Shown here piece by piece: positions 64-45,293 of a DNA stretch of 64,000 nucleotides. Below the pieces are notes generated by a model. It was not told the origin of the DNA. It did not search any database and saw nothing but the letters and a program-made list of their open reading frames with translations. Numbering within the stretch: position 1 is the first letter of the stretch; every line of letters starts with the position of its first letter. Source of the DNA: Methanobacteriota archaeon (GTDB taxonomy: Archaea > Thermoplasmatota > Thermoplasmata > UBA10834). Both the position numbers and the translations under genes were made by a program. The stretch is from positions 44,621 to 108,620 of the forward strand of contig DYTN01000002.1 of assembly GCA_020725925.1 (NCBI GenBank), in the 5' to 3' direction.

Positions 64-340
64 GTCCCAGACGGTCAGGAATGATTAACAGGGTAATTGT
101 TCCTTTTGGCGAAGCGCACATGGTCCCGCGGCGCTCGCAGACGGGCGAGGGCGCAGGCGCGCATAATAAGCTATGTGCCCGCGTCCTGTCCAGCATCGAT
201 TCCCATTTGGGTAACTATAAATATTCCGACTCTTCTATTTAGACAGGACGGGACGATGCGCAGGGCCCGACTTGGCCCTGGAACGCAACGGACTTATTCG
301 GGTCCCGTGCTCCCCCAACGAGCCAGGCATAGGAGAGCGG

Positions 341-2755
341 ATGCCGAAGGACGAGTCAGGAAAGGTCACTTGCCCCATCTGCGGCTACGAATCACCGGAA
401 GGTTCCGCCAGGTGCGAGCACTGCTACAGCTCGCTTCTCCCTGTCGCCACCGAGAACGAGGGGCGGGGGAAGGACTCCAAGACGGTTCCAGACGAGAAGG
501 AGTTGGACGAGCTCAAGCTCGTTCCCGGCGTCGGAGAGGCGAAGGCGGAGGCCCTCCACGAGGCAGGCTATCGATCGATCAAGGACCTCAAGAGCGCGCG
601 CGTCGACGACCTCGCGTCCGTCAAGGGCATCGGCGAGAAGCTCGCGACCAAGATCCTCGAGAGCGTGCACAGGATGTCGACAGGGACGACGGATTCGTCC
701 CTCGCGAACTGGCTCTCGGGCGAGGACGACGGCCTGTCGGACTGGCTCTCGGGAGACGAGAGAGCGCGGCCGGAGGCCACGGTCGCCAACAGAGAGCGGC
801 CGCGGGACGATTCGCTCGCGCGCTGGCTAGCCGGCGATGAGGAGGACGTGAGCGTCTGGCTCGACGAGACGAGGACGGCCGAGGTCGAGCCGCACGAGAT
901 CGGTCCGAACGAGCTGCTCGCCCGCGAGGCCGAGCTCATCCAGCTCAGGGAAACCCTGAGGGAGAAGCTGAGGCAGCTCGACATCGGGGATTTCGACGCC
1001 CAGGGCACAATCGAGGAGCTCGCCAAGGTCCGGGGGGACTACGAGCTCGAGAGGAACAAGACGAGGGAGCTCGAGGAAGAGCTGGAGAACGTCAAGCGCG
1101 GGAGCATCGCAGTCATCAAGTTCATCAAGAGCCAGCAGGGCGGCGAGGCCGACCAGGACGCACTCGCCGACAAGCTGGCGTCCGAGATGGCCAACCGTGA
1201 GACGCTCGAGCTGCAAATCATGCAGCTCGAGGAGACCGTCTCGGCACTCAAGGACAAGCTGGACTCGGGCTTGCAGGAGCTGCCCTCGGACGCACAGGCG
1301 CTGAAGCAGCAGGAGATCGCGCTCGCGGAGAGGCAGGCACAGCTGGATGCGATGAAGAAGCAGCTCCTCGCCAAGGAGGAGGCTCTCAGTAGGGGCGCGC
1401 TCGTGGGAGCGCCCGGGGAAGCGGGCGTCGTCGTGGACCCAGGCCTCGTCCAGAAGGTCCAGGAGTATGCGCGCAGGGAGCAGGAGCTACTCGCAAAGGC
1501 CCAGGACCTCGAGTCCAGGCTCGCCCAGGCCAAGCTCGAGACGAAGCAGAAGGAGGAGATGATGAAGCTCTCGAGCGCGCCGGGAAAGACCATGGACAAG
1601 GAGGTCCTGAGGAAGGTCGAGGACGCTCAGCGCATCGAGCGGACGCTCGTCGTCAGGGAACAGGAGGTCCAGCGCCTCAGGGAGGACCTGAAGATCCGCG
1701 AGGAGGAGATCACCAAGCTCAAGGAGCCGATGAAGTACAAGGAGGACGAGATGCTCAGGCGCGAGGAGGACCTCATGTACCGCGAGCGCCTCCTCCAGGA
1801 AGAGCTCAAGAAGGTGAGCCAGGCAAGGGCGGAGCTGACCTCGCAGGACGAGCTCACGCTCAAGAGGCGCCTGGAGGAGCTCCAGGCGGAGGTCACGGTC
1901 AAGGAAGAGGAGATCAGGTCCAAGGAGAAGTACCTCTCGGCCAAGGAGGAGGAGCTGAGGCTCCGCGAGCAGGGCGTCATCACTGAGGAGATCGAGAGGC
2001 GCGAGCAGGAGCGCATGCTCGAGTTCAAGCAGGAGAAGGTGAAGACTGGAACTGCAAGGCTCGACGACCTGCTGCTCGGCGGCGTGCCGTTCGGCTCGAA
2101 CATACTGATCTATGGTCCGCCGTTCACGGGGAAGGAGGTGCTGTTGAGCGCGTTCATCGCCGAGGGGCTCAAGAAGGGCATCCCCGCACTCTGGATACTC
2201 ACCGAGAAGTCCCCCAAGGAGATGCGCGAGGAGATGTCGTACGTCGTGTCTGGGTACGAGGAGTACGAAAAGCTTGGGCTCGTGAGATACGTCGACGCGT
2301 ACTCGAGGAGCATGGGGGACGAGTCCCAGGACCCGTACGCAGAGTACATCGAGTCGCCCACGGACTACGAGTCGATCCAGAAGGCGATTGAGAACGCCAC
2401 GAAGGCGTTCAAGGAGAAGCACGAGTACTACCGCGTGGGCTTCAGGTCGATATCGACGCTCATCGCCTACCTCGACCCGGGCACGGCCTTCAGGTTCCTC
2501 AGCCCCGTCGTGGGCAGGAGGAAGAGGGACAGGGCCGTGGCGGTGTACACCATCGAGAAGGGCGTTCACGGCGAGCAGGAGATACAGATGATAGGCTCGC
2601 TCATGGACGGCATGATCGAGTTCAAGGTGGAGAACCTGAACACGTTCCTGTCCGTGAGGGGCATATGCGACGTCCAGTCCAGGGCATTCATCAGATACTC
2701 CGCAACGAAGACCGGGGTGTCGATCGGCTCGTTCTCGCTCGACCACATTCGGTGA
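341..2755 (+). CDS. Multidomain protein: N-terminal zinc ribbon, helix-hairpin-helix pair, ~450-aa coiled coil, C-terminal KaiC/RecA-like P-loop domain.
   Basis: - ORF 272..2755; preferred start ATG 341 after GGAGAG.
- N-terminal zinc ribbon CPICGY..CEHC.
- HhH motifs (LVPGVGEAKAEALHEAGY, VKGIGEKLATKILESV).
- Long Glu/Leu/Lys/Arg heptad-rich region.
- C-terminus GGVPFGSNILIYGPPFTGKEVLL..VDAY, typical of KaiC-family single domains.
- Walker A is variant (GKE instead of GKT/S). Confidence 0.7.
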   Translation: MPKDESGKVTCPICGYESPEGSARCEHCYSSLLPVATENEGRGKDSKTVPDEKELDELKLVPGVGEAKAEALHEAGYRSIKDLKSARVDDLASVKGIGEKLATKILESVHRMSTGTTDSSLANWLSGEDDGLSDWLSGDERARPEATVANRERPRDDSLARWLAGDEEDVSVWLDETRTAEVEPHEIGPNELLAREAELIQLRETLREKLRQLDIGDFDAQGTIEELAKVRGDYELERNKTRELEEELENVKRGSIAVIKFIKSQQGGEADQDALADKLASEMANRETLELQIMQLEETVSALKDKLDSGLQELPSDAQALKQQEIALAERQAQLDAMKKQLLAKEEALSRGALVGAPGEAGVVVDPGLVQKVQEYARREQELLAKAQDLESRLAQAKLETKQKEEMMKLSSAPGKTMDKEVLRKVEDAQRIERTLVVREQEVQRLREDLKIREEEITKLKEPMKYKEDEMLRREEDLMYRERLLQEELKKVSQARAELTSQDELTLKRRLEELQAEVTVKEEEIRSKEKYLSAKEEELRLREQGVITEEIERREQERMLEFKQEKVKTGTARLDDLLLGGVPFGSNILIYGPPFTGKEVLLSAFIAEGLKKGIPALWILTEKSPKEMREEMSYVVSGYEEYEKLGLVRYVDAYSRSMGDESQDPYAEYIESPTDYESIQKAIENATKAFKEKHEYYRVGFRSISTLIAYLDPGTAFRFLSPVVGRRKRDRAVAVYTIEKGVHGEQEIQMIGSLMDGMIEFKVENLNTFLSVRGICDVQSRAFIRYSATKTGVSIGSFSLDHIR

Positions 2756-2783: not shown

Positions 2784-3230
2784 TCAGGCGACTTCCATCG
2801 AGGACTTGTGGTCCTTCGCGCCCGGGGCCTTCGCTCCCCCTTTCACCTGGATCTGCGGGGGAGGGAGAGGCGGCGGGAGCCCAAGGTCCCTGGATATCAC
2901 GACGGCCGCGGGCATGCAGTTCGTGAAGATGGCGCCGAGGATTGGGTTGAACACCTCGTTCGGAAGCGCCTTGTTCTGAGGCCACTGCGAGGCAATGCTC
3001 TTCGCGTCGCCGTCCCACACGACTCTGCCCTCGATCGTTATCATGCCCATCCCGACATAGCTGATCGTGAACCGGAAATCAATCTGCGCATCCTTGTCTG
3101 AGAGAGCAGAGACGTTGGTCACGTTCGTGGTGTGGTCCACCCTGATCTGCGGAGGACGCTCGCCGAGCTTGGAGTATCTCTTGGCGTCGACGGACGTGAG
3201 TTCGAAGGACTTGATCGGCATATGGTGCAA
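2784..3230 (-). CDS. Hypothetical protein (beta-rich, Pro-rich C-terminus).
   Basis: 148-aa ORF with coding-like composition. No recognisable family. The promoter-like AT-rich stretch and direct repeats lie upstream (3231-3300). Confidence 0.4.
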   Translation of the reverse strand: MHHMPIKSFELTSVDAKRYSKLGERPPQIRVDHTTNVTNVSALSDKDAQIDFRFTISYVGMGMITIEGRVVWDGDAKSIASQWPQNKALPNEVFNPILGAIFTNCMPAAVVISRDLGLPPPLPPPQIQVKGGAKAPGAKDHKSSMEVA

Positions 3231-3401: not shown

Positions 3402-3675
3402 TCGCCGGAGCAAAAAGGCAGTTACGCGTTTCCTATATTAAACCTCTGCACGCGATGCGAGGAGCGGATGCCTCTCGCAAGAACGTGCAGGGATGCGCTC
3501 GCAGCGTGCGGGGAGGAGGTCGTCAGAGGAGTCAACGAAAGGCATCCGGAAGGAGCGGCTCTCGGGCGTTTTTTTCGCAATCCACAGGCGTTTTCGCCAC
3601 GATAGCAAAAACAATAGTATTAAATATGTTCCAGACGCTGATTAGGTTGCTTCGAAACTCTTGTTTGGTGGTAGG

Positions 3676-4680
3676 ATGACGTCGTCCCCCCAGTACACTC
3701 ACTACTCTACTGACTCGACCGCCGACCGTATCAAGAAATCACCTAGATGGGGCAACGATGAGGGGGTCGCCGCGACGGTCGGCACCATCATGGCGCTCCT
3801 TGTCTTCCTGACCTTCTTCGGCATGTTCACGAACCAATTCGTCCCCGTTTGGATGGGCGACAACGAGAGCGCTCACATGTCGACTGCGATCCAACAGGTC
3901 ACGACGCTCAAGTCGTCAATCGACACCTCGATCTCGATCTACGCGAACAGCCTGGTCGCTGCGGCGCCGATGTCCGTGCCAATCACTCTAAGCGCGTCAG
4001 GCATACCCGTCTTCGCCGCTCCCACTGCGGGCATTCTGCAGTTCACACCCGAGGGAGTCCTTGTGCGCCCAATGTTCAATGTCACATACACCTACCAGTC
4101 CACGGGCGGGTATACGAACACGCTCAGCCCGGCCAACGACGGAAGGTCCGGGGGGATGCTCGACCTGTACTGTCCGAACAGGTACTATGTGGAGCAGCAC
4201 CTGACCTGGGAGAACGGCGCGGTGATACTGAACCAGAGCGACGGCGAGTTCGTCATCGCGGGACCGCAGTTCTCGGTCAGGGACCTGGGCACCGCGGGCT
4301 CGCCCAACAGGGCCGTGATGCTGACCCAGATCTCGCTCCAGGGCACCAACAAGACGATAGGGGGGACTGGCTCGAAGCTCGTCACGGCCGAGATGCAGTT
4401 CGCGGACACGAAGTCCTACGAGAACGCCAACGGTGCCTCGCTGACGATCACCATAGTCACGAAGCACGGCATGGCGTGGGCGAGGTACTTCAACTCGTCG
4501 CTCCAGAGCTCCCCCGCCGGCCTCGACTACGGGACGGACTTCTGGGTCAACTGGACCCTCCACGAGCAGACCAACAAGCTCGACAACTACTACACGGTCA
4601 CAATCACGATAGGCCAGGTCATGATACTCGACCACACGAAGGCGACAGTCAAGCTGTCAGTCGGCGAGCTGGGGGTCTAG
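3676..4680 (+). CDS. Membrane-anchored extracellular beta-rich protein, candidate (minor) pilin or pilus-associated protein of the downstream pilus operon.
   Basis: - ATG at 3676 (the ORF-track TTG at 3661 is less likely).
- A charged N-region is followed by a single hydrophobic helix VAATVGTIMALLVFLTFFGMF.
- A Thr/Ser/Gly/Asn-rich beta-rich ectodomain follows.
- Stop is 12 nt before the secretion ATPase start.
- An AT-rich TTAAATAT box lies ~45 nt upstream. Confidence 0.5.
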   Translation: MTSSPQYTHYSTDSTADRIKKSPRWGNDEGVAATVGTIMALLVFLTFFGMFTNQFVPVWMGDNESAHMSTAIQQVTTLKSSIDTSISIYANSLVAAAPMSVPITLSASGIPVFAAPTAGILQFTPEGVLVRPMFNVTYTYQSTGGYTNTLSPANDGRSGGMLDLYCPNRYYVEQHLTWENGAVILNQSDGEFVIAGPQFSVRDLGTAGSPNRAVMLTQISLQGTNKTIGGTGSKLVTAEMQFADTKSYENANGASLTITIVTKHGMAWARYFNSSLQSSPAGLDYGTDFWVNWTLHEQTNKLDNYYTVTITIGQVMILDHTKATVKLSVGELGV

Positions 4681-4691
4681 GGAGGAAGACG

Positions 4692-6446
4692 ATGGCCGAA
4701 ACACATCCGAAACCGAAGCATGAAGTGCCCGTCAGCGCCCCGAAGATGCCGCTGGGTTCGAGAATCTACCAGGGCTGGGTGGGCGCGCTGAGCAAGATGA
4801 AGTCCTCGCCCGTGGAGGTCAGACAGCCCAGGGGAGCCGCTGCCAGGAAGCGCGACTGGAGCCAGGGCAGGGGTTCGGTGTACACTCAGGTCCCGCCGAT
4901 AACCGACATCGACATCCAGGAGATGGGGTTCTACGGGGTCGAGGAGCCGTTCAGCTACGTCAGGGCCACATACAACGGCGCCACCAGCGAATACCTCCTT
5001 AACGTGATCGAGCCCGCGCTGACCGAGGAGGAGGAAGAGCTGCTGAGGCTGATTAAGGAGACCCTCGAGAAGACCCTCGAGTACGACTGGGAGAAGCTCA
5101 CGGTGATGGACAAGAAGACCTACATCGAGAGGAGCGTGGACAGCTACATCAAGTCCAGGGGGATGGCGATCGAGCCCATCTCCAAGGACAAGGTCTCATA
5201 CTTCATCGCAAGGGACTTCGTCGGCTATGGGCCAATTGACGCCCTGATGAACGACCACCACATCGAGGACGTTTCTTGCGACGGCGTTGGCATCCCGCTG
5301 TTCGTGTTCCACAGCAAGTTCGAGTCGATCAAGACGAACATCATGTTCGAGGACGAGAACGACCTGAACTCGTTCGTGGTCAACCTGGGCCAGAGGTGCG
5401 GGAAGCAGCTCTCGGTCTCAAACCCGATCCTGGACGGCACCGCACCGGAAGGGCACAGGGTCCAGGCGACGTACGCCAGGGAGGTCACGACCAGGGGCGC
5501 ATCGTTCACCATCAGGCGGTTCAAGGAGAAGCCCTTCACCCCCGTCGAGCTCATCAAGTACGGCACCGCATCTCCCGAGATCGTGGCGTACATGTGGCTC
5601 AGTGTGGAGCACGGCGAATCCGCGATCATATGCGGGGGAACAGCGAGCGGCAAGACCGCGACCTTGAACGCCATGGCACTTTTCATACCGCCCGGCGCGA
5701 AGGTCGTCACGATGGAGGACACCAGGGAGATCAACCTGCCCCACGAGAACTGGATCCCCGGCACCACCAGGTCAGGTGTGGGAGAGCGCGGGCCCGACGG
5801 CAAGGCCGCGGGCGAGATAGACATGTACGACCTGGTGAGGGCCTCGTTGAGGCAGAGGCCCAACTACATCATCGTCGGTGAGGTCAGGGGCAAGGAGACC
5901 TACACGATGTTCCAGGCGATGGCCACGGGCCACACAACATTCTCGACGATGCACGCGGACAGCGTCAAGGGCATGGTCAACAGGCTCGAGAACCCCCCCA
6001 TCAACTGCCCGAGGATACTGCTCACCGCCCTGAGGAACGTCATCATACAGACCCATGCCAGGGTGGGCATGGACATGGTCAGGCGCATAAAGCAGCTCAT
6101 AGAGATCGTGGGGTTCGAGCCCGAGACGAACGAACTGATCTCGAACACCGTCTACGAGTGGGACCAGGCAACTGACAAGTTCATCTTCAAGGGGCACAGC
6201 TTCCTGTTCGACAAGATCATGGAGATGAAGAACCTGACGCACGAGGAGCTCCTGCAGGAGTTCGAGCGGAGGGTGGACGTCGTGAAGTACATGGTCGCGA
6301 AGGACATCACTGACCACAGGGAGATCTGGGGGCTCATCAGGGAGTACTACAAGGACTCGAAGGTCACCTCGGAGCGAATCAGGAAGGAGCTCTATGGCTC
6401 CGCCCCCAGGCCCACGATGATACCCGGAGGTGAGGTCGCTGCCTGA
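4692..6446 (+). CDS. Type IV pilus/archaellum-type assembly ATPase (FlaI / TadA / GspE-VirB11 superfamily), paralog 1.
   Basis: - ATG 4692 preceded by GGAGG.
- Walker A GGTASGKTATLNA.
- Asp box TMEDTREINLPHENW.
- Walker B/His box region IIVGEVRGKETYTMFQAMATGH.
- Full-length FlaI-like N-terminal domain. Confidence 0.9.
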   Translation: MAETHPKPKHEVPVSAPKMPLGSRIYQGWVGALSKMKSSPVEVRQPRGAAARKRDWSQGRGSVYTQVPPITDIDIQEMGFYGVEEPFSYVRATYNGATSEYLLNVIEPALTEEEEELLRLIKETLEKTLEYDWEKLTVMDKKTYIERSVDSYIKSRGMAIEPISKDKVSYFIARDFVGYGPIDALMNDHHIEDVSCDGVGIPLFVFHSKFESIKTNIMFEDENDLNSFVVNLGQRCGKQLSVSNPILDGTAPEGHRVQATYAREVTTRGASFTIRRFKEKPFTPVELIKYGTASPEIVAYMWLSVEHGESAIICGGTASGKTATLNAMALFIPPGAKVVTMEDTREINLPHENWIPGTTRSGVGERGPDGKAAGEIDMYDLVRASLRQRPNYIIVGEVRGKETYTMFQAMATGHTTFSTMHADSVKGMVNRLENPPINCPRILLTALRNVIIQTHARVGMDMVRRIKQLIEIVGFEPETNELISNTVYEWDQATDKFIFKGHSFLFDKIMEMKNLTHEELLQEFERRVDVVKYMVAKDITDHREIWGLIREYYKDSKVTSERIRKELYGSAPRPTMIPGGEVAA

Positions 6447-7470
6447 GGTATCTGACGTATTTAGGAAGGTCGAGGTGAAGCCGGCTCAGTACCTCAAGAC
6501 CAAGATCACCATGGGCGAGGGGACCATCGGGCCGCACTCGGTCAGGCTCGTGAAGGGGACGGTGCCGGAGTACATCAAGCTCTCTCCGTTCCAGGACCTC
6601 GCCTGGAGGACCATGGGCAAGCGCGCCAAGACGAAGACCGCGCTCCTGCAGCAGCTCGAGGAGTCGCTCCTGAAGGCCCACATGAAGATCCGGCCGGAGG
6701 AGTACCTGGCGTATGTCCTCATGGCGACACTGGTGACCGCCGTCGTGGGGGTCGTGATAGCCATCGTGGTCGGCGTGCTGATCTTCGGCCTGATGGATGT
6801 CAACATCATGCTCAGGATAATGGTCTCGGTGGCAGCGATTCTGCTCCTTCCGATCATGACCTACTTCCTTCTGTTGGGCTCCCCCGGCTCGAAGGCGAAG
6901 TCCAGGAGCAGGGACATAGACAAGCGCATTGCGGCCGCGATGAGCTTCATATCCGCGATGGCGTCTGCGGACGTCAACATCGATGTCATCTTCAAGGAGC
7001 TGTCGAGGCAGAAGGTGTACGGGGAGATAGCCCACGAGTCCGCCTGGATCACGAGGGACACGGAGCTCCTCGGGTCCGATATCCTGTCCGCCATCAAGAA
7101 GGCCGCCAGGAGGTCCCCATCCGCGAAGTTCCAGGACTTCCTACAGGGCGTCATCACAACCTCCACCTCGGGCGGGCAGCTCAAGCCGTACTTCCTGCTC
7201 AAGGCGGAGGAGTTCCAGAAGGAGAACAAGCTCGCCCTCAAGTCCCAGATGGAGACCCTCGGGATGCTTGCTGAATCCTTCGTGACGGTCGTGGTGGCGT
7301 TCCCGCTGTTCCTCGTGCTCATCCTGGCGATCATGGCAATCGTCGGCGGCGGAGGCGACCCGGACTTCATGGTCATGATGCTCTATCTGATCGTCCTGGG
7401 GATGATCCCTGTGTCCCAGTTCGGCTTCGTGTTCGTCATCTGGAACATGTCAAAGGAGGCTTCGATGTAG
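6430..7470 (+). CDS. Pilus platform membrane protein with a single T2SSF domain (TadB/TadC/FlaJ-like), half 1.
   Basis: - Several TM helices.
- The cytoplasmic helical domain RDIDKRIAAAMSFISAMASA..QDFLQGV is typical of GspF/TadC family domains.
- Overlaps the upstream ATPase stop, indicating operon coupling. Confidence 0.75.
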   Translation: MRSLPEVSDVFRKVEVKPAQYLKTKITMGEGTIGPHSVRLVKGTVPEYIKLSPFQDLAWRTMGKRAKTKTALLQQLEESLLKAHMKIRPEEYLAYVLMATLVTAVVGVVIAIVVGVLIFGLMDVNIMLRIMVSVAAILLLPIMTYFLLLGSPGSKAKSRSRDIDKRIAAAMSFISAMASADVNIDVIFKELSRQKVYGEIAHESAWITRDTELLGSDILSAIKKAARRSPSAKFQDFLQGVITTSTSGGQLKPYFLLKAEEFQKENKLALKSQMETLGMLAESFVTVVVAFPLFLVLILAIMAIVGGGGDPDFMVMMLYLIVLGMIPVSQFGFVFVIWNMSKEASM

Positions 7471-8406
7471 ATGCCGCCGCAGAGGAAGATGTCGGAGCAG
7501 GAGCGGGAGAGGGCCCTCAAGAGGATCCTCGCGACTGAGCGGGCCGACAAGACCAGGACTATCGTGGGCGGCTCCATCGGAGTGGCTGCGGTCCTCATAT
7601 TCGCGGGCGTCGTGGACTACATAGGCAGTGCTGACCTGCCGCTGGACGCCATCGACTGGATCATATTCGCCATAGCCGCGATCATCGGCCCGTACGGCTT
7701 CTACGTGAGCGCCAGGGAGAAACGCGTGAGGGAGATTGAGATGAGGCTGCCCGACTTCCTCAGGGATGTCGCAGAGGCCGGGAGGTTCGGCATGACCCTC
7801 GCGGATGCCATCGTCGTCGCGAGCACCGGCAGGTACGGCAGGCTCACGCCGGAGATAAAGAAGATGGCCGCGCAGATAGAGTGGGGCGTGCCCGCCTCGG
7901 AGGCCATCAGGCTGTTCTCCGAGAGGGTCAAGACGCCCCTGGTGACGAGGATGGCATCCATCATCATGAAGGCGAACGATGCGGGCGGCAACGTCGCCGA
8001 CGTGCTGAGCATGGTCTCGCACGACGCGAAGGAGACCATCCTGACGCAGGAGGAGCGGGGCGTGACGATGCAGACCTATGTGCTCGTCGTGTACATCGCC
8101 TTCTTCGTGTTCATCGCGACAATCCTGATCCTGCAGGGCCAGTTCCTCCCGAAGATGGAGGAGGCGGGCACGCAGGTGAGCGAGGCGGCGGAGGCCCAGG
8201 GCGTCGGGGAGATACCGGGAGTGAGCATACAGGTCGACATCATACCAACAGTGGGGTTCATCTTCCTGCTGTCCGTGCTCGTACATGCGATTGGCGACGG
8301 GCTCCTGGCGGGCGTGATACAGAAGGGGAGCATCCCGATAGGCATGAGGCACAGCTTCATCATGCTGCTGGCCGGCTTCGTGTCCCTGAGGATCATAGGA
8401 GGCTGA
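7471..8406 (+). CDS. Pilus platform membrane protein with a single T2SSF domain (TadC-like), half 2.
   Basis: - Start codon abuts the previous stop (TAGATG).
- TM helices.
- T2SSF-like cytoplasmic domain LPDFLRDVAEAGRFGMTLADAI..RLFSERV. Confidence 0.75.
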   Translation: MPPQRKMSEQERERALKRILATERADKTRTIVGGSIGVAAVLIFAGVVDYIGSADLPLDAIDWIIFAIAAIIGPYGFYVSAREKRVREIEMRLPDFLRDVAEAGRFGMTLADAIVVASTGRYGRLTPEIKKMAAQIEWGVPASEAIRLFSERVKTPLVTRMASIIMKANDAGGNVADVLSMVSHDAKETILTQEERGVTMQTYVLVVYIAFFVFIATILILQGQFLPKMEEAGTQVSEAAEAQGVGEIPGVSIQVDIIPTVGFIFLLSVLVHAIGDGLLAGVIQKGSIPIGMRHSFIMLLAGFVSLRIIGG

Positions 8407-8410
8407 CAGG

Positions 8411-10126
8411 ATGACAGCAGAGACTGCGCAACCAAGGATCGTGCCTCTGGAGGCCCCGACGGAGGAGGCCAAGGAGAAGAAGAAGGGGCCTGGCCTGAAG
8501 TCCGCGTACTACAACTTCCTGCTCAAGCTCAAGCCCAAGCCCCTCATGGTCGCGCTCCCGAAGACGGAAGCGACCGTGGACATGTCCAGGATAACGGAGA
8601 TACCGAAGCTGACCGAGCCGAACATCGACGAGGTGGAGACGGCCCCGGTCAAGCAGAACTACTCCTATGTCAGGATCAAGTACGACAACAAGTCGAACGA
8701 GTACCTCTACGAGGTGATCGAGCCGCGGCTCTCAGAGGACGAGCGGGACGTGCTGAGCCTGCTCAAGGAGACGCTCGTCGCCTCCGTCGAGCACATGACG
8801 GAGGTCTCGACTGAGGAGAAGGAGAAGTACCTGAGGAGAATAGTCGAGCAGCTGATGCTCCAGCTGGCCGTCACCCTCAACCCCGTCTCGAAGGAGAGAG
8901 TGATGTACTACATAGCCAGGGACTTCATCGGGTACGGCGTCATCAACGTGATGATGATGGATCCGAACGTCGAGGACTGCTCCTGCGATGGCGTCGACAT
9001 CCCGTTCTACATATACCACAGGAAGTACGGTTCGATCAGGTCCAACCTCAGGTTCGCGGCCGAGGTGGAGCTTGACGGATTCGTCGTCTGGCTGGCCCAG
9101 AAGTGCGGCAAGCACATATCCGTGGCGAGCCCGCTCCTGGACGCCACCATCCCCGACGGCTCGAGGCTCCAGGCAACCCTGGGCAAGCACGTGACCAAGA
9201 GGGGCTCCTCGTTCACCATCAGGCGGTTCAAGGAGAACCCCTTCACGCCCCTGGACCTGCTCAAGTTCAAGACCATGGGCACCGAGATGATGGCCTACCT
9301 GTGGATCGCCATCGAGCACGGGCAGTCGATGCTCGTGTGCGGAGGCACCGCGAGCGGCAAGACGACCACGCTCAACGCCGTCCTGCTGTTCATCCCGCCC
9401 CAGATGAAGATAGTCTCGATAGAGGACACTAGGGAGCTCAACCTCCCGCATGAGAACTGGGTCCCGGGCCTGACTAGGGAGGGCTTCGGCGGCAAGAGCG
9501 CGATCACCGGCCGCGCCACGGGCGAGATAGACATGTTCGACCTGCTCACATCGGCCATGAGGCAGAGGCCCCAGTACCTGATGGTCGGAGAGGTCAGAGG
9601 CAAGGAGGCGTACGTCGTCTTCCAGGCCATGGCCACGGGCAAGACCTGCTACTCCACCTTCCACGCAGAGGATGTCCAGGCGATGGTGCACAGGATGGAG
9701 AACGACCCCATCAACCTCCCCAGGGCGCTCATCACGGCGCTCAATGTCGTGCTCCTCCAGGCGCAGGTCAAGGTCGGCACGAAGATGACCAGGCGGGTCA
9801 AGTCGCTCACTGAGATCGTCGGGTTCGACCCCGAGACCAACGAGCTCATCACCAACTCTGTCTACACCTGGAACCCGGCGGACGACACCTTCAACTACAG
9901 CGGCCACAGCTATGTCTACGAGAAGGTCAGGATGGCCAGGAACTGGTCCCCCAGGGAGATGGAGAGGGAGCTCAAGAGGCGCGTGGACATCCTGGAGTAC
10001 ATGAAGAAGATAGGCATGGACAGCCACAGGAAGGTCGCGACGATCATCTCGGCGTACTACAAGGACCCCGAGAAGGTCATGAAAGAGGTCCGGGCGAAGC
10101 TGGCCGAGGGCGCGGAGAGGATCTGA
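8411..10126 (+). CDS. Type IV pilus assembly ATPase (FlaI/TadA family), paralog 2.
   Basis: - AGGAGG 8 nt upstream of the ATG.
- Walker A GGTASGKTTTLNA.
- Asp box SIEDTRELNLPHENW.
- MVGEVRGKEAYVVFQAMATG.
- Roughly 50-55% identical to the 4692..6446 product over its full length. Confidence 0.9.
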   Translation: MTAETAQPRIVPLEAPTEEAKEKKKGPGLKSAYYNFLLKLKPKPLMVALPKTEATVDMSRITEIPKLTEPNIDEVETAPVKQNYSYVRIKYDNKSNEYLYEVIEPRLSEDERDVLSLLKETLVASVEHMTEVSTEEKEKYLRRIVEQLMLQLAVTLNPVSKERVMYYIARDFIGYGVINVMMMDPNVEDCSCDGVDIPFYIYHRKYGSIRSNLRFAAEVELDGFVVWLAQKCGKHISVASPLLDATIPDGSRLQATLGKHVTKRGSSFTIRRFKENPFTPLDLLKFKTMGTEMMAYLWIAIEHGQSMLVCGGTASGKTTTLNAVLLFIPPQMKIVSIEDTRELNLPHENWVPGLTREGFGGKSAITGRATGEIDMFDLLTSAMRQRPQYLMVGEVRGKEAYVVFQAMATGKTCYSTFHAEDVQAMVHRMENDPINLPRALITALNVVLLQAQVKVGTKMTRRVKSLTEIVGFDPETNELITNSVYTWNPADDTFNYSGHSYVYEKVRMARNWSPREMERELKRRVDILEYMKKIGMDSHRKVATIISAYYKDPEKVMKEVRAKLAEGAERI

Positions 10127-10236: not shown

Positions 10237-13200
10237 CTACTGGTTCTCCTCGTCGCCGCCTTCCTCGCCCTCTTTCTTCTCCTCGGCGCCCAACGGCGTC
10301 TTTATGATCTTCTTGGGCACGACCTTGCGGTCGATCGGTCTCCTGATGACCATCCTCGGAGCGGCTGCCGGGGGCACTGCCGGTGGCGCACCAGCCTCCC
10401 TCTCCGCTGGAGCTGCTGGCTCCACTGCAGCCGGTGCCGTGGGCGGTGGGCCCCTGCGCACAGGCGGTGGGGCGGCTCTCTCGGCGCCGAACACGGTGCC
10501 GCACTTGTGGCACACGGTGGCCTCCTTCGGGTTTAGCGTTCCGCAGACCGGGCACGGGATCGGCCCCTCCTTCTTCTTCTCCTCTTCCTTGGCGAGCCAG
10601 TCCTCGAAGCTGATGTACGCCGGCTGTCTCCTCCACCACTCCTCGAAGGCCCTGTCGGTGAACTTCTTGCCCAGCTCCGGCTTGGCGAGCTCACGGTACT
10701 TGGAGACCATGTCGTCGTACTGCTTCCTCATGCGCTCCAAGTAGTCCGCCTCCTCCTCGACCTCGCCGATGAACTTCACGCCACAGTTCGGGCACTCAGC
10801 GGACTCGGCGGGTATCCATGCGCCGCACTCGGAGCACTTCATCGTACCAGCTTCGAACTCCACGCCACACTTCGGGCACCTCTTGCTCGCAGCGGGTATG
10901 AACGCGCCGCACTCGCCGCACTCGACGAGCTTGCCGAGGCCATACACGTACGTGTATATGGTGAAGCCCGCGACGACGCCGACCACCGCCACTATGATCA
11001 CGATCCAGACCCACCACGGGAACAGGCCGCCCTCGACGGCCGCGCTGATGGTGACCGTCGTGGTGGCATCGTAGTTCTGGCCCAGCACGACCGTCCTCAC
11101 GGCATACGAGCCCGAGTCCAGCTCAGCGGGTATCCTCAGGAAGACTATGATGCTCCCGTCGGCGTCGGTCGTCTCGACCGTGCTGTTGGAGTAGGGCACG
11201 ACCAGCGGGTTGTCGGGGTCGCTCGGATCGATCAGCCAGAAGACCACTCCCGGCAGGCCCACCACGCCTTGGGACGTCCCCTGGTAAGTTATCGTGGCCG
11301 TGATGATCATGATGTCGCCGGCGTCGTACTCGTTCGCGTCGGTGGTCACGGTGACCGAGACCTGCAGCTGCTGTATCGTGAAGGTGTGGTTGGCGAAGTT
11401 GTTGGTCTCGTATGGCTCCGACACGGAGTAGGCCGGATCGAGCCAGACCCACAGCTCGTATTCTCCTGGCGTTGTGAGGTTGATCAGCCAGCTCACGGAG
11501 ATCAGAAGCACGTTGTCAGTCGCGTTGGCGGAGATGTTGTACTCCAGGCCGGTGTGTATCGTGTGGTTGTAGCCCGCAGCGTTCCTCACGCCGATCCGCA
11601 CCTCAAAGACGCTGACGACGCTGCCGCCCAGGTTGCGCACCCTGGCATTGACGGTCACGTTCCTCCCGAAGGTCTCGCCCGTGGTGTTGCTCCCGCCGCG
11701 CTGGACGAATATCTCGTCACCGTCGATCGACAGGTCCGCCCTGATGTCCAGCACGGTGATCGACCCTGTGAGGATGTTGTCCGCATAGGACTCCTCGATG
11801 CGGGACTGCTCGGGGTTGACTATCACGACGATGCTGGCAACGACACTCTGGGTGAGCACTGGGGCAGGGAACTCTATCTTGACCGGCCACTTCCCACTCT
11901 CAGATGTCAGGCTCACGATGACGGTCGTTGTCTTGAGCTCCGAGATGCCCGAGTAGTTGAAGTACACCCAGACCTCCGGGTTGGAGAACGGCATTGGGTT
12001 GGAGTTGCTGAGGTTCACTTCGACTGTGATTGTCTGGCCGCCAGCGACCGAGCCGGCAGGGGATATCTTGAGGTCCGTCAGCTTCAGGTCCGGATGCTCG
12101 TACACGTCGATGTAGACGTAGTCCCAGTTGTTCGTGGTGTACAGCTCCTCGACCCCGTCGGGCAGGCTGGCCACTACTGTGATCCAATGCAGCTCGGGCG
12201 TGGAAGGTGTCCACGGCATTGAGACGAACGTATAGGAGCCAGGAGCGATGCTCGGGATCGTCGTCGTCCCGACCAAGTCCCCTCCGTCGAAGATGTCCAC
12301 AGTCACATCGTAGCTGGTGTTGCTGCCGATGTTGCTTATCTTCGCGACCAGGGTCGTGGGAACATCGACTTCGACGTAGGTATCAGTCGCATAGATCCAT
12401 GGGTCCCACGGGTAGCCATCAGACACGTAGACGTCCGGGAGGCTCTTGACAGTGACGAACCCAGACCCAGTAGCTGGTGCTGTGTTGTTGAGCTCAGGGA
12501 TCGTGTCCAGCGGGTCGACGACAACGATGATTCTGTGCGCATTTGGGTCCAACGGGCTGTCAGCAGTCCAATACCACACAGCGGTGGCATTCGAGCCCGG
12601 CTCGATGACGGGTATCACCGTGGATCCGAAAAGCTCGTCCGACTCAGGGATTCCGTTGTCCCAAGCGTCGTCGTAGAAGTCCACCCTGACATCATATGCC
12701 CTCGCGATACCGTCATTGTGAATGTTGGCGTACACGGTGACGTTCTGCCCAATCCTGGGGTACACAGGGTCAGTCCAAACAGGCACCGGAGGATCATGCA
12801 CTGCCAAGTCCGGCAACGCATCCTCGATGGTCACTGTCAGGTAGGTCACGTTTCTCCCGAGGGGAGTCGTGTAGGGCAGGACGCTCGTCGAAACCTCGCC
12901 GTCGGGGTAGTAGTTCTGCGAGTTGAACGTGTAGGTCACGTTCACCCAGTAGTTGCCCACGTAGCCTTCTGTCGGTCCTGCGCTCGTCAATCTCTGCGCG
13001 AGCGCGTTCACCTTGGCGACACCAAGCGCATCAGGTGCGGAGCTGCTCACAGCAGAGCTTGCGTTTATGCCACTGATGTAGTACCTCGCGGTCACCAAGG
13101 CGCCTGGCAAAGGCTTGCCGACACCGTCCAGGACGGTGACATGTATCCATCTGTATATCAGAGCCGCTGCGTCGCGCTCGACTGTTATGGAGGGAGCGCT

Positions 13201-15408: not shown

Positions 15409-15521
15409 AAGTTCACCAACCCAGAGATGCTGGGTACTGCGGGAGAAGTAAGCAGTTCGGCCATATAAAAAGGTATTCACCAGGTTTTCATGTCGGAGCA
15501 GACTGTTTTTCGGCAGTCTGG

Positions 15522-16517
15522 CTAACCGCTTTTTCGCTTCACTATTTTCTTGACAAATATCTGCGGTTTCCTCGTCTCCGAGGGCTTGTCAGAGACATCT
15601 TCCGAGCCGACCTTCACCTCGAGCTTCGTCAGCGATTCCTTGATGTTCACGCCGCAGGCGTAGCACATCAGGGCGTCCCGGCTGACCATCGTCTTGCAGT
15701 TGAGGCAGGGGATCTCTTCATCCTCGGACCCCTCCTCTGCCTTCACGGGCTCGCCGAACTCCTCCTCGCGTATCTTCTGCCCGCAGGCGTAGCACATGAT
15801 CGCGTCCTTGCTGATCACGGTCCTGCAGCCGGGGCAGAGCATCTCGTCCTCGCTCAGCGTGGCTGCGAGCGCGGGCTCGGGCTCAATCCTGACCGGCGCG
15901 GCTGCCACCTTGGTCAGCATGTCCTTCTGGCGGTCCAGGAGCTTCCTCGCGTCCTCCGAGAGCTTCTCCCTGTCGCGCCTGAGGGACTCCTCCTCCTCCG
16001 CGAGCGCGCGCTCCCTCGCGACGAGCGTGTCCCTCCGGGCAGTGATCTGCTCGAGCACCCGCTGGATCTCCTCCTCGGACTTCTTCAGCAGGTCCTCCCT
16101 GCTCAGGAGCCTCTTCCGCCTTTCGGTCACATCCGCCTGGAGGGTGTTGATCTCCGCAAGCCTGTCCGAGGCGTCCTTCTCCCTCGCCTCCGCAGACGTG
16201 ACCGCCGCCTTCGATACCGCCTCGAGCTTGGCTAGCTCGGCGGCCCTCGAATCAAGCTGGCCCGCCCTCTCCTTAAGGGATGACTCCTGTCTCTTGAGTT
16301 CCTCAACGCGCGCCTCGACCGAGGATTCCTTCTGCCTGATCGAATCCTCCTTCTCCCTGAGGCGCTGCTCGAGCGCCTCGACCTCGGACTTCTGCTTCAG
16401 GACGTCCTCGCGCTCCGCCTTGAGCTCGAGGTCCTTCTTCCTGACCTCGGCCTCCTGGGTCTTGAGGCGCTTGACCGCGTCCTCGATTATCTGGGAGATC
16501 GTCTGGTCTTCTGCCAT
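15522..16517 (-). CDS. Coiled-coil protein with two C-terminal zinc ribbons (DZR-type).
   Basis: - ~230 aa of Glu/Lys/Arg/Leu-rich heptads.
- Then CPGCRTVISKDAIMCYACG and CLNCKTMVSRDALMCYACG.
- Followed 80 nt later, on the same strand, by a KaiC-like gene. Confidence 0.7.
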   Translation of the reverse strand: MAEDQTISQIIEDAVKRLKTQEAEVRKKDLELKAEREDVLKQKSEVEALEQRLREKEDSIRQKESSVEARVEELKRQESSLKERAGQLDSRAAELAKLEAVSKAAVTSAEAREKDASDRLAEINTLQADVTERRKRLLSREDLLKKSEEEIQRVLEQITARRDTLVARERALAEEEESLRRDREKLSEDARKLLDRQKDMLTKVAAAPVRIEPEPALAATLSEDEMLCPGCRTVISKDAIMCYACGQKIREEEFGEPVKAEEGSEDEEIPCLNCKTMVSRDALMCYACGVNIKESLTKLEVKVGSEDVSDKPSETRKPQIFVKKIVKRKSG

Positions 16518-16596
16518 CGCTCACCACTTGGGATGGTTCGGGCGAACGCTTCCTCACGCATATACGTTGTGGACTACTACAAAGTTTTGCCGCGCG

Positions 16597-17313
16597 CTAC
16601 GGCGCGCTCATGAGCGGGCCGAGCACCTGGATGCCGTTCCTCCCGACCTCGATCGCGTGCCTTTCCATCGAGTGCTCCGAAGCCCTCATCTTCTCCACCT
16701 GCAGGAACCTCACGAGCTTCCCACGCTGCCTGTCCAGGCCGAGCATCAGTATGCCGTCCGCGAGGAAGCCCTCGTTGCCCAGGAGCTGGCTCTCGCCCGA
16801 GAGCGAGCGCTCCATTATGATGAAGCATGTCAGGTTGTTGTCCCTGATCATCTTGAAGAAATAGAACATCTTCTTGCGCATGTCGCTCACGTTCTCCATG
16901 AGCGAGTAGAGCGCGCCGAGCGAGTCGAGGACGAATATCGAGAACTTGTCCCCGTGGGTCTTCTTGAAGCGCTGGATCATCTTCTCGATGAAGAGGACGT
17001 AGTCGGTCTGCGCCTCCTGGCCTATGACCTCGTCTATCTGGTCGACCTCCCTGAGGTCGGTCAGGTCCGAGATCTGCATCTTCATCGAGAGCTTCGCGCC
17101 TACGCTGTCCATGTTCTTCAGGTGGCTGTCGACCGTCTCCTCCAGGGTGGTGTACAGCCCGAACTCGTTCTTGTCTTTGAGGTAGCTGCTCATGAGAGAA
17201 TAGCAGAATGTGGTCTTCATCGAGCCCGGGGGTCCAGTGACCAAGACGACCTTCGGCCGGTCGATGTCGTTCTTGAAGACCTTCTCCAAGCCCGGAACAG
17301 AATCCTTGAACAA
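16597..17313 (-). CDS. KaiC/RecA-superfamily single-domain (pseudo)ATPase (COG0467-like).
   Basis: - TTG start 7 nt after AGGAGG.
- VVLVTGPPGSMKTTFCYSL..FVLDSLGALY..CFIIMER matches the KaiC-like fold.
- P-loop has Met in place of the second Gly. Confidence 0.75.
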   Translation of the reverse strand: MFKDSVPGLEKVFKNDIDRPKVVLVTGPPGSMKTTFCYSLMSSYLKDKNEFGLYTTLEETVDSHLKNMDSVGAKLSMKMQISDLTDLREVDQIDEVIGQEAQTDYVLFIEKMIQRFKKTHGDKFSIFVLDSLGALYSLMENVSDMRKKMFYFFKMIRDNNLTCFIIMERSLSGESQLLGNEGFLADGILMLGLDRQRGKLVRFLQVEKMRASEHSMERHAIEVGRNGIQVLGPLMSAP

Positions 17314-17437: not shown

Positions 17438-20036
17438 TCACTCAGCGTCGTCCTCGGAGCCCTCATCCCCGTCGTCTGACCCCTTCTCTCCGGGCTCGTC
17501 CTCGTCAACCATGTCGCCGTTCGGCGCAGGGCAGCTGGTCAGCGTGCGCCCCGACTCTATCGTCCGCTCCTCCTCGGATGCGCCGACGAGGCGGGCGACG
17601 GCACTGATGGTGTCCCCCTCCTTGAGCTTCATCAGGCGCACGCCCATGGTGTTCCTGCCGAGGACGCTGATTCCCGAGACAGGCATGCGGATGACCATCC
17701 CGTAGACGCTCGTGACGATGAGCTCGTTCTCGTCCTTCACGGCCTTGACGGTGACGACGTCCCCGTTCCTGCCGCCCGTCTTGATCGTGATGACGCCCTT
17801 GCCGCCCCTGCGTATCTTCCTGTACTCCTCCACTGTGGAGCGCTTCCCGTAGCCGTTCTCAGTCACCGTCAGGAGCTGGTCCTTCGAGTCGACCACGGCC
17901 ATGCTGACGACCTCGTCGCCCTTCTGGAGCCTGACGCCCCTGACGCCGTACGTGGCCCGCCCGGTCGGCCGGACATCGCTCTCCATGAACCGCGCGGCGA
18001 GGCCCTTCTTGGTGGCCAGTATGATCTCCTTCGACCCGTCCGTGATGGACGTGTCGACGACCGAGTCGCCCTCGTCCAGCTTGATGGCGATTATGCCGCT
18101 CTGCCGGACGTGCGAGTACGCCGAGAGCCTCGTCTTCTTGATGGTCCCGTTGGCCGTGGCGAACACGAGGTAGCTGTCGTCCGTGAAGAGCTTCACGGGT
18201 ATCGTGTTCACGACCTTCTCGCCGTCCTCTAGGTGCTCGAGCAGGTTCACGACGGGCTTGCCCTTGGCGTGCCTGCCGGCCGCGGGGATCTTGTACGCCT
18301 TGAGCCAGTAGACCCTGCCCTTGTTGGTTATGTACATCACGTAGTCGTGAGAGCATGTGATGAACAGGTCGACGACGTAGTCCTCTTCCTTGGTCTCCAT
18401 ACCCATGAGCCCCACGCCGCCCCTGTGCTGGCGCTCGTATGTGTCGAGCGGTAGGCGCTTGATGTAGCCTGTGTTGCTGATCATCACGACCACGTCCTCG
18501 ACCGGTATGAGGTCCTCGATGTCCATGTCGATCGCGTTGGCCTCGATGGTCGTGCGCCTGGCGTCCCCGAACTGCTTCTTGACAGCCAGCACCTCGTCCT
18601 TGATGACGCCCAGGATCTTCTTCTCGTCCTTGAGTATCGATTTGAGCTCGTCTATCAGCTTCTTCGTGGCGTCGGCCTCGTCCCTGACTGCCTGCATCTC
18701 CATCCCCGTCAGCCGCTGCAGCTGCATCTCGAGGATTGCCTTGGTCTGCTCCTCCGACAGGAGGTACTTGGCCATCAGGGAGTTCCTGGCCTCGTCCCGA
18801 GTCTTGGCCTTCCTGATGATCCTGATGACATCGTCCAGGTGGTCGAGCGCGGTCATGAGGCCCGCGAGGATGTGCGCGCGCTTCTCCGCCTCCCTGAGCC
18901 TGTGCTCCGTCCTCCGCTTGACGACATCGAACCTGTGCTCGACGTAGTACTCGAGCATCTCCTTGAGCGAGAGCACCCTGGGCTGGTTGTTCACGAGCGC
19001 GAGGTTGAATTATGCCGAAGGTCGTCTGGAGCTGCGAGTGCGCGAACAGCTGGTTCAGCACGACCTCCTCGATCGCGTCCTTCTTCAGCTCGATGACTAT
19101 CCGCATGCCCTCCTTGTCGGACTCGTCCCTGAGGTCGGAGATGCCTTCGATGCGCTTCGACTTCACCAGCTCGGCGATCTCCTCGAGCAGGGTGGACTTG
19201 TTGACCATGTAAGGTATCTCCGTGACCACCAGTTGCGCCTTGCCGGAGTCCTCGTCCCTCTCGATGGAGTACCTGGCGCGGATGCGCATCCTGCCCTTGC
19301 CGGTGGCGTACGCCTCCGCAATCCCCTGGGCACCGTAGATGACGCCCCCAGTGGGGAAGTCCGGGCCCTTCACGATCTCCATGAGGTCCCTGAGCTCCGG
19401 GTCCTTGCCCTGGATCTGCATGTCGACCATGAGCGCGACCGCGTCCACGACCTCGCCGAGGTTGTGCGGCGGGATGTTCGTGGCCATCCCGACGGCGATG
19501 CCCTGGGAGCCGTTCACGAGCAGGTTGGGGAGCTTCGCAGGCAGCACGAGCGGTTCCTTGAGGGTGCCGTCGAAGTTGTCTGTGAAGTCGACCGTCTCCT
19601 CGTCGACGTCCTTGAGCATCTCCGCGGCGATGGCCGAGAGCCTGCACTCGGTGTACCTCATCGCGGCGGCGGAGTCGCCGTCCACGCTCCCGAAGTTCCC
19701 TTGGCCGTCAATGAGCGGGTAGCGCATGGAGAACTCCTGGGCCATGCGGACGAGGGTGTCGTAGATGGCCATGTCGCCGTGCGGGTGGAACTTGCCCAGC
19801 ACCTCACCGACGACCCGCGCGGACTTCTTGTGGGCCTTGTTGTGGCCCAGGCCCATCTCGTTCATCGCGAACAGGATGCGCCTGTGGACCGGCTTGAGCC
19901 CGTCGCTGACATCGGGGAGCGCGCGACCGACTATGACGCTCATGGCATAGTCGATGTACGACTTCTTCATCTCGATCTCGATGGGCCTCTGGACAAGCCT
20001 GGTCGCGATGTGTGGCTCCTCGGTTGCGTCGACCAT
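17438..20036 (-). CDS. gyrA: DNA gyrase subunit A, interrupted by a single-nucleotide frameshift near 19005-19012.
   Basis: - N-terminal part (from 20036) carries the GyrA catalytic region: AAMRYTE, GNFGS, PHGD.
- This frame ends at ..TTFGII.
- The remainder ([20 protein letters not shown].. through the six-bladed beta-pinwheel C-terminal domain) is in another frame, ORF 17438..18994. Confidence 0.9.
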
Positions 20037-45117: not shown

Positions 45118-45293
45118 TCCCTTGGGACGTTCATAAACGCTTGTGAATATAAAAATAGTTGCATTCCAGATTCATCGGAAGCAAGACGTTCGGAATGCAA
45201 GAACTCAGGCCATGGCTCGCCCACGACCTATGCAGAAAAGGAAGAAGTTGGAAAGGGTTTTTGGGTCTTCCATCAGGCAATGATGCCGCTCGA

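Follow-up and report, generated by a model that had tools for sequence, protein, structure and literature searches.

A conserved Thermoplasmata protein family in which a degenerate KaiC-like domain follows a long coiled coil and short Trp-Leu motifs

We analysed a stretch of 64,000 nucleotides (nt), here called the window, from a Methanobacteriota archaeon of the Thermoplasmatota (assembly GCA_020725925.1, contig DYTN01000002.1, positions 44,621 to 108,620), and all coordinates below are positions in it. Near its start lies a gene for a protein of 804 amino acids (aa), which consists, in this order, of a zinc ribbon, a double helix-hairpin-helix domain ((HhH)2), an acidic linker with Trp-Leu motifs, a coiled coil of about 380 aa and an end domain with the KaiC/RecA fold. 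An earlier note, made from the DNA letters alone, had listed zinc ribbon, HhH motifs, coil and KaiC-like domain, and this list is correct for the 804 residues, the zinc ribbon being a probable one. We lean towards the view that the gene encodes a conserved non-enzymatic scaffold of the class Thermoplasmata, which belongs to an independent DUF7504-type family and is not a fusion of the KaiC/adaptor gene pair found further along the window. The gene and its parts, all on the plus strand, are the following:

341..2755 (+), coding sequence of the 804-aa protein, from ATG 341 to the stop codon at 2753-2755, which is included in the span (open reading frame (ORF) list and translation)
331..335 (+), AGGAG, likely ribosome-binding site judging by its sequence, 5 nt before ATG 341
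365..430 (+), probable four-Cys zinc ribbon, aa 9-30 (C11, C14, C25, C28), with invariant Cys and predicted strands
497..679 (+), (HhH)2 domain, aa 53-113, with the G-h-G hairpins PGVGEAKA and KGIGEKLA (Pfam; AlphaFold2, AF2)
695..868 (+), acidic linker with four Trp-Leu motifs (W124, W135, W162, W173; L-x-x-W-L-S/A-G-D/E-D/E), each Trp invariant
896..1396 (+), N-proximal coil module, aa 186-352, with AF2 helices 189-214, 220-264, 273-312 and 316-352 and heptads
1076..1129 (+), conserved block ELENVKRGSIAVIKFIK within the coil, aa 246-263, with N250, K252-S255 and A257-K260 invariant
1397..1438 (+), variable Gly/Pro-rich coil break, aa 353-366, with a predicted local distance difference test score (pLDDT) <50 and 15% identity against 59-75% in its flanks
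1439..2047 (+), C-proximal coil module, aa 367-569, with AF2 helices 367-411, 420-499 and 504-569
1715..1786 (+), conserved block KLKEPxxYKExEMLRREEDLMYRE, aa 459-482, with Y466, K467, E470, R473, D477, L478, R481 and E482 invariant
2048..2752 (+), KaiC/RecA-fold domain of the DUF7504 type, aa 570-804, ending in an invariant GSFSLDHIR (Pfam, PDB, AF2, Foldseek)
2114..2137 (+), degenerate Walker A GPPFTGKE, aa 592-599, with E599 at the Mg-binding Thr/Ser site (alignment to KaiC, PH0284 and RecA)
2201..2209 (+), T-E-K, aa 621-623, at the catalytic Glu-Glu pair of KaiC (aligned to FEE of KaiC and LEE of PH0284)
2429..2455 (+), Walker-B-equivalent strand YRVGFRSIS, aa 697-705, with R702 in place of Asp (aligned to vviDSi of KaiC and vvvDSv of PH0284)

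Upstream of the ATG the reading frame stays open as far as TTG 272, an alternative start that would give 827 aa; this longer start has been adopted in one public record (P0001). We prefer ATG 341 because the orthologues share it, about 80 of them beginning at the corresponding Met (MPK...) in the alignment, and because AGGAG stands just before it. About 120 nt 5' of ATG 341, at 216-223 (+), we noticed TATAAATA, a possible archaeal TATA box; it would imply a leader of about 90 nt.

The end domain was matched above threshold by two Pfam models, KaiC (PF06745, aa 567-768, E 1.5e-19, 70.7 bits against a cut-off of 26.6) and DUF7504 (PF24336, aa 585-760, 64.7 bits against 27). A sequence search of the PDB returned KaiC (8zn5, E 1.9e-18) and the archaeal protein PH0284 (E 3.1e-15). 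An AF2 model of the domain, built from 132 diverse relatives, reached a pLDDT of 96.5 and a predicted template modelling score (pTM) of 0.92. In Foldseek its nearest match was PH0284 (template modelling score (TM) 0.81-0.85, root-mean-square deviation 2.4 A, 22% identity), followed by the CI and CII domains of KaiC (TM ~0.72-0.76), PH0186 and SSO2452. Homology to KaiC/RecA, as the earlier note had proposed, is therefore upheld by profile, sequence and fold searches alike.

The active site of this domain is altered at three places, each of which is invariant over the 79 orthologues compared. The unusual GKE Walker A that had been remarked on earlier is confirmed as GPPFTGKE, in which E599 aligns with the Thr of GKT in KaiC, PH0284 and RecA. 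More widely, 143 of 149 cluster representatives could be aligned at the Walker A positions, and the residue after the Lys is Glu in 113 and Asp in 13 of them and Thr or Ser in only 4. At the catalytic Glu pair T621, E622 and K623 are invariant: the first catalytic Glu is retained and the second is Lys. R702 stands at the Walker B Asp, a position occupied in distant representatives by Arg (39), Leu (36), Glu (12) or Asp (7). The Walker A Thr/Ser, the Walker B Asp and the complete catalytic Glu pair of an active KaiC-like ATPase are thus all missing. GKE appears to be one part of a family-wide conversion of the Mg/nucleotide site, and the end domain is probably a pseudo-ATPase; the label of a KaiC-like ATPase, which the protein had first been given, is doubtful in view of E599, K623 and R702. 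A different reading of the same residues is a nucleotide-sensing switch, in which the P-loop binds ATP, ADP or phosphate without Mg-dependent hydrolysis and its occupancy controls oligomerisation of the stalk. The G-x4-G-K backbone is kept in a way that would suit it (Lys in 134 of 143 representatives; G592, G597 and K598 invariant), as are E622 and a P-loop region that is modelled with very high confidence. However, Glu at the Thr/Ser site together with Arg (or Leu) at the Walker B site removes both Mg ligands, and the substituted side chains would plausibly fill or repel the phosphate/Mg site, so we consider such a switch improbable.

We then placed the protein in its family. A full-length search gave 169 relatives; the 120 of these that were listed are 58-100% identical over 761-827 aa, and those with names come from Thermoplasmata or Thermoplasmatota metagenome-assembled genomes. 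A genome scan with one genome per species gave 95 loci, 80 of which were retained; their sources are uncultured Thermoplasmata and members of the Methanomassiliicoccales, among them Methanomassiliicoccus sp. Proteins of the latter order measure 570-660 aa and keep the Trp-Leu motif or motifs, the coil and a GKE domain ending in GSFALDHI[KR]. They have neither zinc ribbon nor HhH domain, and we therefore regard Trp-Leu motifs, coil and dead KaiC-like domain as the core of the family; to judge from these alignments, ribbon and HhH are lineage-specific add-ons outside it. An exhaustive search with the end domain returned 2502 matches at E <= 0.001 and 157 cluster representatives at E <= 1e-30. 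In most of the latter the domain lies at the extreme C-terminus of proteins of 500-1250 aa, with N-terminal modules that vary between zinc ribbon, HhH-like domain, Trp-Leu pairs and transmembrane segments. One relative lies on a partial 2-kb contig labelled Actinomycetota. By sequence, then, the protein belongs to an independent DUF7504-type family that spans the Thermoplasmatota. In databases its members go under names such as 'DUF7504 family protein [Thermoplasmata archaeon]' and 'ATPase domain-containing protein [Candidatus Thermoplasmatota archaeon]', and in the literature searched we found no mention of DUF7504, DUF7090 or PF24336. The Pfam and NCBI entries under this name cover the end domain, above threshold, as a domain of uncharacterised function, without the full architecture or the motifs, and the architecture and motif analysis given here goes beyond that annotation. 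Paralogous forms were also seen: two in tandem in one genome (L089, 10001-13189 and 13557-15443; 1062 and 628 aa), the longer one containing K-K-G-S-V-A-M-M-K-Y three times, and a subfamily of 850-960 aa with N-terminal transmembrane segments and a GSFxLERIR end (P0138, P0166, P0169).

AF2 predicted a nearly unbroken helix from residue 189 to 569, with breaks at 215-219, 265-272, 313-315, 353-366, 412-419 and 500-503. In the best heptad register the a and d positions are 53-73% hydrophobic, against 18-37% at the other positions, and a crude heptad score gave z ~7 relative to shuffled sequences. The coil is 59-75% identical among orthologues (75% over residues 430-566), which speaks against low complexity, and with heptad occupancy, z score and AF2 helices pointing the same way we accept it as a coil of true heptads. 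The coiled coil proposed in the earlier note is thus real, although its length is about 380 aa and not the ~450 aa given there; neither of the two findings that the note itself had named as refuting it, a failed KaiC/RecA match or a low-complexity coil, was obtained. Its two conserved blocks are distributed differently. The K-K-G-S-I/V-A-x-x-K-Y motif of the ELENVKRGSIAVIKFIK block occurs in 20 of 149 distant representatives, in one of them in up to three copies, and the block is absent from the Methanomassiliicoccales versions; the block at aa 459-482 is kept both there (YKE-E-RREEDL-YRE) and in distant representatives.

As to geometry, two of the breaks (215-219 and 500-503) and likewise the two blocks are, in this clade, roughly mirrored about residue ~360, which falls in the variable Gly/Pro loop; this arrangement first suggested an antiparallel hairpin. 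When coil breaks were located by Gly/Pro density, a crude measure, the distance from the break to the KaiC-like domain was ~203-221 aa in 17 of 37 non-redundant members, whereas the N-proximal coil ranged from ~60 aa in Methanomassiliicoccus to ~200 aa across the family. The C-proximal coil is thus near-constant while the N-proximal one varies 3-fold. Since the two arms change in length independently, full antiparallel pairing is not favoured, and the hairpin was not adopted. The stalk probably consists of two modules joined by a flexible loop in a parallel homo-oligomer. A fold search with the full-length AF2 model returned the KaiC-type domain only and gave no informative match on coil topology.

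At the N-terminus, the ribbon has the pattern CPIC-x10-CEHC, with all four Cys residues invariant in 79 orthologues. The segment forms beta-strands in the AF2 model (pLDDT ~85), and Pfam DZR models scored 12.3-12.5 bits on it, below their cut-off of ~27 (27.3). The HhH region (pLDDT 89-94) matched Pfam HHH_5 at aa 56-108 (E 8.2e-14, 52.3 bits against a cut-off of 27), and the Pfam HHH model matched two separate stretches; the hairpin glycines are invariant or nearly so in orthologues. With two G-h-G hairpin motifs and HHH_5 above threshold, the region is assigned to the (HhH)2 domains. Since RadA and Rad51 likewise carry an N-terminal HhH domain before a RecA-fold core, the protein could be thought a RadA-paralogue-like mediator of DNA repair or recombination with a coiled-coil insertion. 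The HhH domain does match the RadA/Rad51 N-terminal models (NCBIfam PRK04301, E 5.1e-10, aa 55-112) and the core belongs to the RecA superfamily. However, these matches are confined to the HhH part and reach 39 of the 259 bits required for PRK04301 and 33 of 361 for TIGR02236; moreover, the nearest folds are KaiC-type and not RadA, the Methanomassiliicoccales orthologues have no HhH domain, and the ATPase site needed for filament dynamics is lost. We find this reading hardly credible.

The KaiC/adaptor pair with which the protein had been equated lies further along the window:

15522..17313 (-), KaiC/adaptor pair, consisting of a stand-alone KaiC (16597-17313) and a coiled-coil double-zinc-ribbon adaptor (15522-16517)

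The stand-alone KaiC (238 aa; Pfam KaiC, E 2.3e-33) has the canonical motifs GPPGSMKT and ...FVLDSLG. The adaptor (331 aa; Pfam DZR or Zn_ribbon_3) carries two C-terminal CPxC...MCYACG ribbons and a basic tail and contains no Trp. KaiC and adaptor form a conserved two-gene unit in three other genomes (L085, L086, L087), where the adaptor is 319-378 aa long and is again made up of coil, acidic linker, paired CPxC...MCYACG ribbons and basic tail. The tail always reads K-P-x-(I/V)-F-V-K-K-(I/V)-x-K-(K/R). In one of the three genomes (L086) the pair sits away from the surface-protein and pilus neighbourhood that is described below.

According to the earlier note, the 804-aa protein is the single-chain equivalent of this pair, from which Rosetta-stone logic would give a functional partnership between coil-ribbon proteins and KaiC. 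Taken in full, such a fusion would be an active ATPase with an SMC/Rad50-like antiparallel coil and a nucleic-acid-binding head. It is true that each unit brings together KaiC fold, coil and zinc ribbon, that the two stand within 17 kb on either side of one pilus-like locus and giant surface protein, that the pair is itself a conserved unit, and that in this clade the coil is roughly mirrored about the loop at 353-366. The comparison of the parts gave a different result. The end domain and the stand-alone KaiC are only 23% identical (E 5e-5), and the N-terminal 556 aa gave only short matches of the coiled-coil type to the adaptor, alike in composition. The order of modules is reversed, KaiC being followed by coil and ribbon in the pair and ribbon and coil being followed by KaiC in the 804-aa protein, and the ribbons differ in number, position and sequence (two at the C-terminus of the adaptor, one at the N-terminus here). 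The 120 top-ranking relatives of the stand-alone KaiC, at 67-93% identity, are all 229-289 aa long and unfused, and the same genomes carry both units as distinct orthologous groups. The pair further differs in its canonical ATPase motifs, where the 804-aa protein has lost catalytic residues, in its basic tail and in having no Trp-Leu motifs. The Rosetta-stone argument needs homologous components, and here only a distant superfamily link exists, for one half; a KaiC domain, a coil and a zinc ribbon that occur in one chain and in a nearby pair do not make a Rosetta-stone fusion. We conclude that the equivalence is not supported, although the analogy of ingredients and neighbourhood is fair; on homology, as far as sequences tell, the fusion is largely refuted, and we hold it to be very unlikely.

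The likeness to SMC and Rad50 proteins that had been drawn at the same time lies in a long coil which links a domain of nucleotide-binding fold to a module of DNA-binding type and has a flexible break in its middle. In contrast to those proteins, the 804-aa protein has no ATP-binding cassette (ABC) head split between N- and C-terminus, a RecA/KaiC fold standing in its place, no hinge and no CxxC zinc hook, the loop at 353-366 being without Cys; the best NCBIfam SMC match had E 0.39 and fell on the coil only. C-proximal coils of ~203-221 aa beside N-proximal coils of ~60-200 aa also speak against a fully paired hairpin, and we do not retain an SMC/Rad50-like tether geometry.

Residues 116-185, between HhH domain and coil, form an acidic, mostly disordered linker whose four motifs read LANWLSGEDD, LSDWLSGDE, LARWLAGDEED and VSVWLDE. 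They are modelled as short helices (pLDDT 50-75), and W124, W135, W162 and W173 are invariant in orthologues. The family-wide consensus, distant members included, is hydrophobic-x-x-W-L-(S/T)-G-(D/E)-(D/E); it frequently occurs as a pair with a spacing of 11 residues, and the Methanomassiliicoccales versions keep one or two copies. A similar motif was found in a second protein of the window:

10579..10608 (-), FEDWLAKEEE in the cytoplasmic tail of a giant surface protein of 1747 aa (ORF 10237-15480), identified by motif resemblance only

This surface protein carries CARDB repeats, and its tail has three zinc ribbons, between which FEDWLAKEEE sits. The motif is kept as F-(E/D)-x-W-L-(A/S)-(K/Q)-E-E in nearly all of 45 orthologous tails examined and reads FE[KSQ]WLSQEE in those of Methanomassiliicoccales. 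In a sample of 1.73 million residues (six-frame ORFs from 89 related loci) a loose Trp-Leu pattern had 143 matches; this family accounts for 100 of them and the surface-protein tail for 39, which leaves 4 in other places. The resemblance suggests a short linear motif common to the 804-aa family and the surface-protein tail.

The gene order around the 804-aa gene (plus strand unless marked) is Lhr helicase, FtsJ (-), AIRS, DUF531 (-), a 55-aa gene (-), an HdrA/FlpD-like gene (-), the 804-aa gene, a 148-aa gene (-), tRNA-Phe, DUF7289, T2SSE, T2SSF, T2SSF, a PilB3-type T2SSE and the giant surface protein (-). The HdrA/FlpD-like gene takes part in it only in this clade; the order is otherwise kept from this clade through the Methanomassiliicoccales. 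The genes from DUF7289 to the PilB3-type second ATPase, with one T2SSE and two T2SSF genes, make up a type-IV-pilus-like locus at 3661-10123 (+). The immediate downstream neighbour is:

2784..3230 (-), convergent gene for a protein of 145-148 aa of no known family, with a conserved alignment, given for context only

This neighbour lies directly downstream of the family gene at all but 2 of the 80 loci, both of which are incomplete, and does so also in the clade of L037, L043, L044 and L045, where adjacency is kept only among the 55-aa, family and 148-aa genes. No other neighbour of the family is as constant, and it is found even where the pilus-like locus is missing; its protein has a PPPxPxP C-terminal region. 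It had no match in Pfam, NCBIfam or PDB; an impression that it was SecB-like found nothing to bear it out in sequence and profile searches of the same three databases and was dropped. Upstream of the family gene and divergent from it, a conserved protein of 55-64 aa (...DVFFDGD[QE][FY]AIC.R.RKAP) was seen in other genomes (L001:4987-5154 (-), L037:9612-9806 (-)); its gene is not in the window, and in this lineage the HdrA/FlpD-like gene intervenes.

A gene for a KaiC fold beside such a locus raises a comparison with ArlH (FlaH), likewise a single KaiC-fold domain beside a T2SSE-type ATPase locus, whose role is docking rather than catalytic (PMC4858521). The 804-aa protein would then be an accessory of the adjacent pilus-like machine, its KaiC fold docking on the hexameric T2SSE ring as ArlH does on ArlI, its coil serving as stator or spacer and its Trp-Leu motifs tying in the surface-protein tail. 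The order from the family gene through the 148-aa gene, DUF7289, T2SSE, both T2SSF and the PilB3-type T2SSE to the surface protein is conserved as far as the Methanomassiliicoccales at 42-54% protein identity, KaiC-family proteins recur beside archaeal type IV pilus loci (PMC4858521), the NCBIfam FlaH model gives a weak match, and the Trp-Leu motif is common to the protein and the surface-protein tail. However, synteny extends just as well to the upstream genes Lhr, FtsJ, AIRS and DUF531, so that the order may simply have been inherited and the neighbourhood is weak evidence for a link to the pilus locus; with housekeeping genes equally syntenic and distant homologues elsewhere, we down-weighted it as functional evidence. 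The gene is also transcribed separately, a convergent gene and tRNA-Phe lying between it and the pilus-like locus, and no pilus locus occurs within 10 kb in the L037 clade or in the distant homologues of L088 and L089. ArlH itself is ~230 aa long, has no coil and is encoded inside its operon, and the models for ArlH (NF052589, 16.9 against 215 bits) and FlaH (PRK06067, 38.4 against 194 bits) fall far below their cut-offs on the 804-aa protein. An accessory of this kind is therefore unlikely in our view, if worth keeping in mind. Homologous pilus-like loci were also seen on contigs of Methanomassiliicoccales and Methanomassiliicoccus sp. (L073, L076, L079, L083), with ATPases 65-82% identical; a 2016 census listed no secretion ATPases of its five arCOGs in Methanomassiliicoccus (PMC4858521). 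A role in anti-phage defence was set aside, since the best PADLOC match, mad8, had E 0.0024 and 15 bits and the gene stands in a stable syntenic core block.

Altogether, a scaffold or tether function is the most likely one for the 804-aa protein, as far as its predicted architecture allows us to say. In such a scaffold the dead KaiC-like domain would act as an oligomerisation or docking module without turning over ATP, and the coil would form an extended homo-oligomeric stalk. The Trp-Leu motifs would recruit a partner that would likewise bind their counterpart in the surface-protein tail, and the HhH and zinc-ribbon head would give this clade an extra, probably DNA-binding, attachment point. 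Several observations weigh against this scaffold. The full-length AF2 model has a pTM of only 0.37, and the Walker A Lys, kept in 134 of 143 representatives, is compatible with a domain that binds nucleotide or phosphate but does not hydrolyse it. Convergence could account for the Trp-Leu motif of the surface-protein tail; by rough estimate, the chance that one neighbouring protein carries such a motif is a few percent. In addition, the whole ~30-kb block is syntenic across orders, housekeeping genes included, and distant homologues stand in unrelated contexts.

It is tempting to go further and to picture the Trp-Leu motifs docking on a hub in the way that BRC repeats dock on the RecA fold of Rad51. 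The hub might be of the KaiC/RecA fold, either the protein's own end domain or a KaiC paralogue of the genome, and the surface-protein tail would join it as well. This would make the protein a cytoskeletal tether, specific to Thermoplasmata, from the envelope, with its surface protein and type-IV-pilus-like machine, to the cell interior and, through the HhH head of this clade, to DNA. We think this an improbable extension of the scaffold; if true, it would mean that these archaea, whose cultured relatives are not known to have a rigid cell wall, are organised on a new principle.

Among known proteins, the single-domain archaeal KaiC-like proteins (PH0284/UPF0273, 2dr3; PH0186, 2zts; SSO2452, 2w0m) resemble the end domain in fold and size. 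They are stand-alone proteins of ~240 aa with GKT, EE and the Walker B Asp, whereas the end domain has E, K and R at these places and follows a 570-residue extension. The CI and CII domains of cyanobacterial KaiC are homologous to it (E 1.9e-18 to 8zn5; Foldseek TM ~0.75), in a protein that is a double-domain active ATPase and autokinase; the 804-aa protein, in contrast, has a single degenerate domain with ~380 aa of coil N-terminal to it. A KaiC joined to a coiled coil has a precedent in Rhodobacter (PDB 8db3 and 8dba, going by the entry titles), where the coil is short and C-terminal. Few P-loop proteins of archaea are as numerous and as poorly understood as the KaiC-like ones, and Makarova, Galperin and Koonin reportedly proposed in 2017 that these act as regulatory hubs. 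The family described here puts the fold to a different use, with a charge-swapped active site joined to a long coil and short linear motifs and kept class-wide, up to the Methanomassiliicoccales, methanogens of the human gut and of wetlands. If the scaffold is real, it opens a way into how Thermoplasmata cells are organised, supplies a clear-cut KaiC pseudo-enzyme from nature, and provides, through the Trp-Leu motif, a testable link between a cytoplasmic scaffold and a giant surface protein.

Two further loci of the window were noted. A second KaiC cluster at 44554-48208 (-) contains a canonical KaiC-like gene (47378-48208, GSCGTGKT), two KaiC-fold genes that are degenerate (46785-47381, where no P-loop was matched, and 46058-46783, which has GGPGSGTE) and two pilin-like genes (45294-45857 and 44554-45117); its products may assemble into a ring that mixes active with inactive subunits. 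Next to the KaiC/adaptor pair, gyrA (17438-20036, -) appears to have lost 1 nt from an A-run at ~18990-19010, which breaks it into two ORFs that overlap; the translation reads ...QLQTTFGII in one frame and goes on in another. The GyrA orthologues in two other genomes (L085, L087) are intact at 852-860 aa, and the split is probably an assembly error or, otherwise, a pseudogene.

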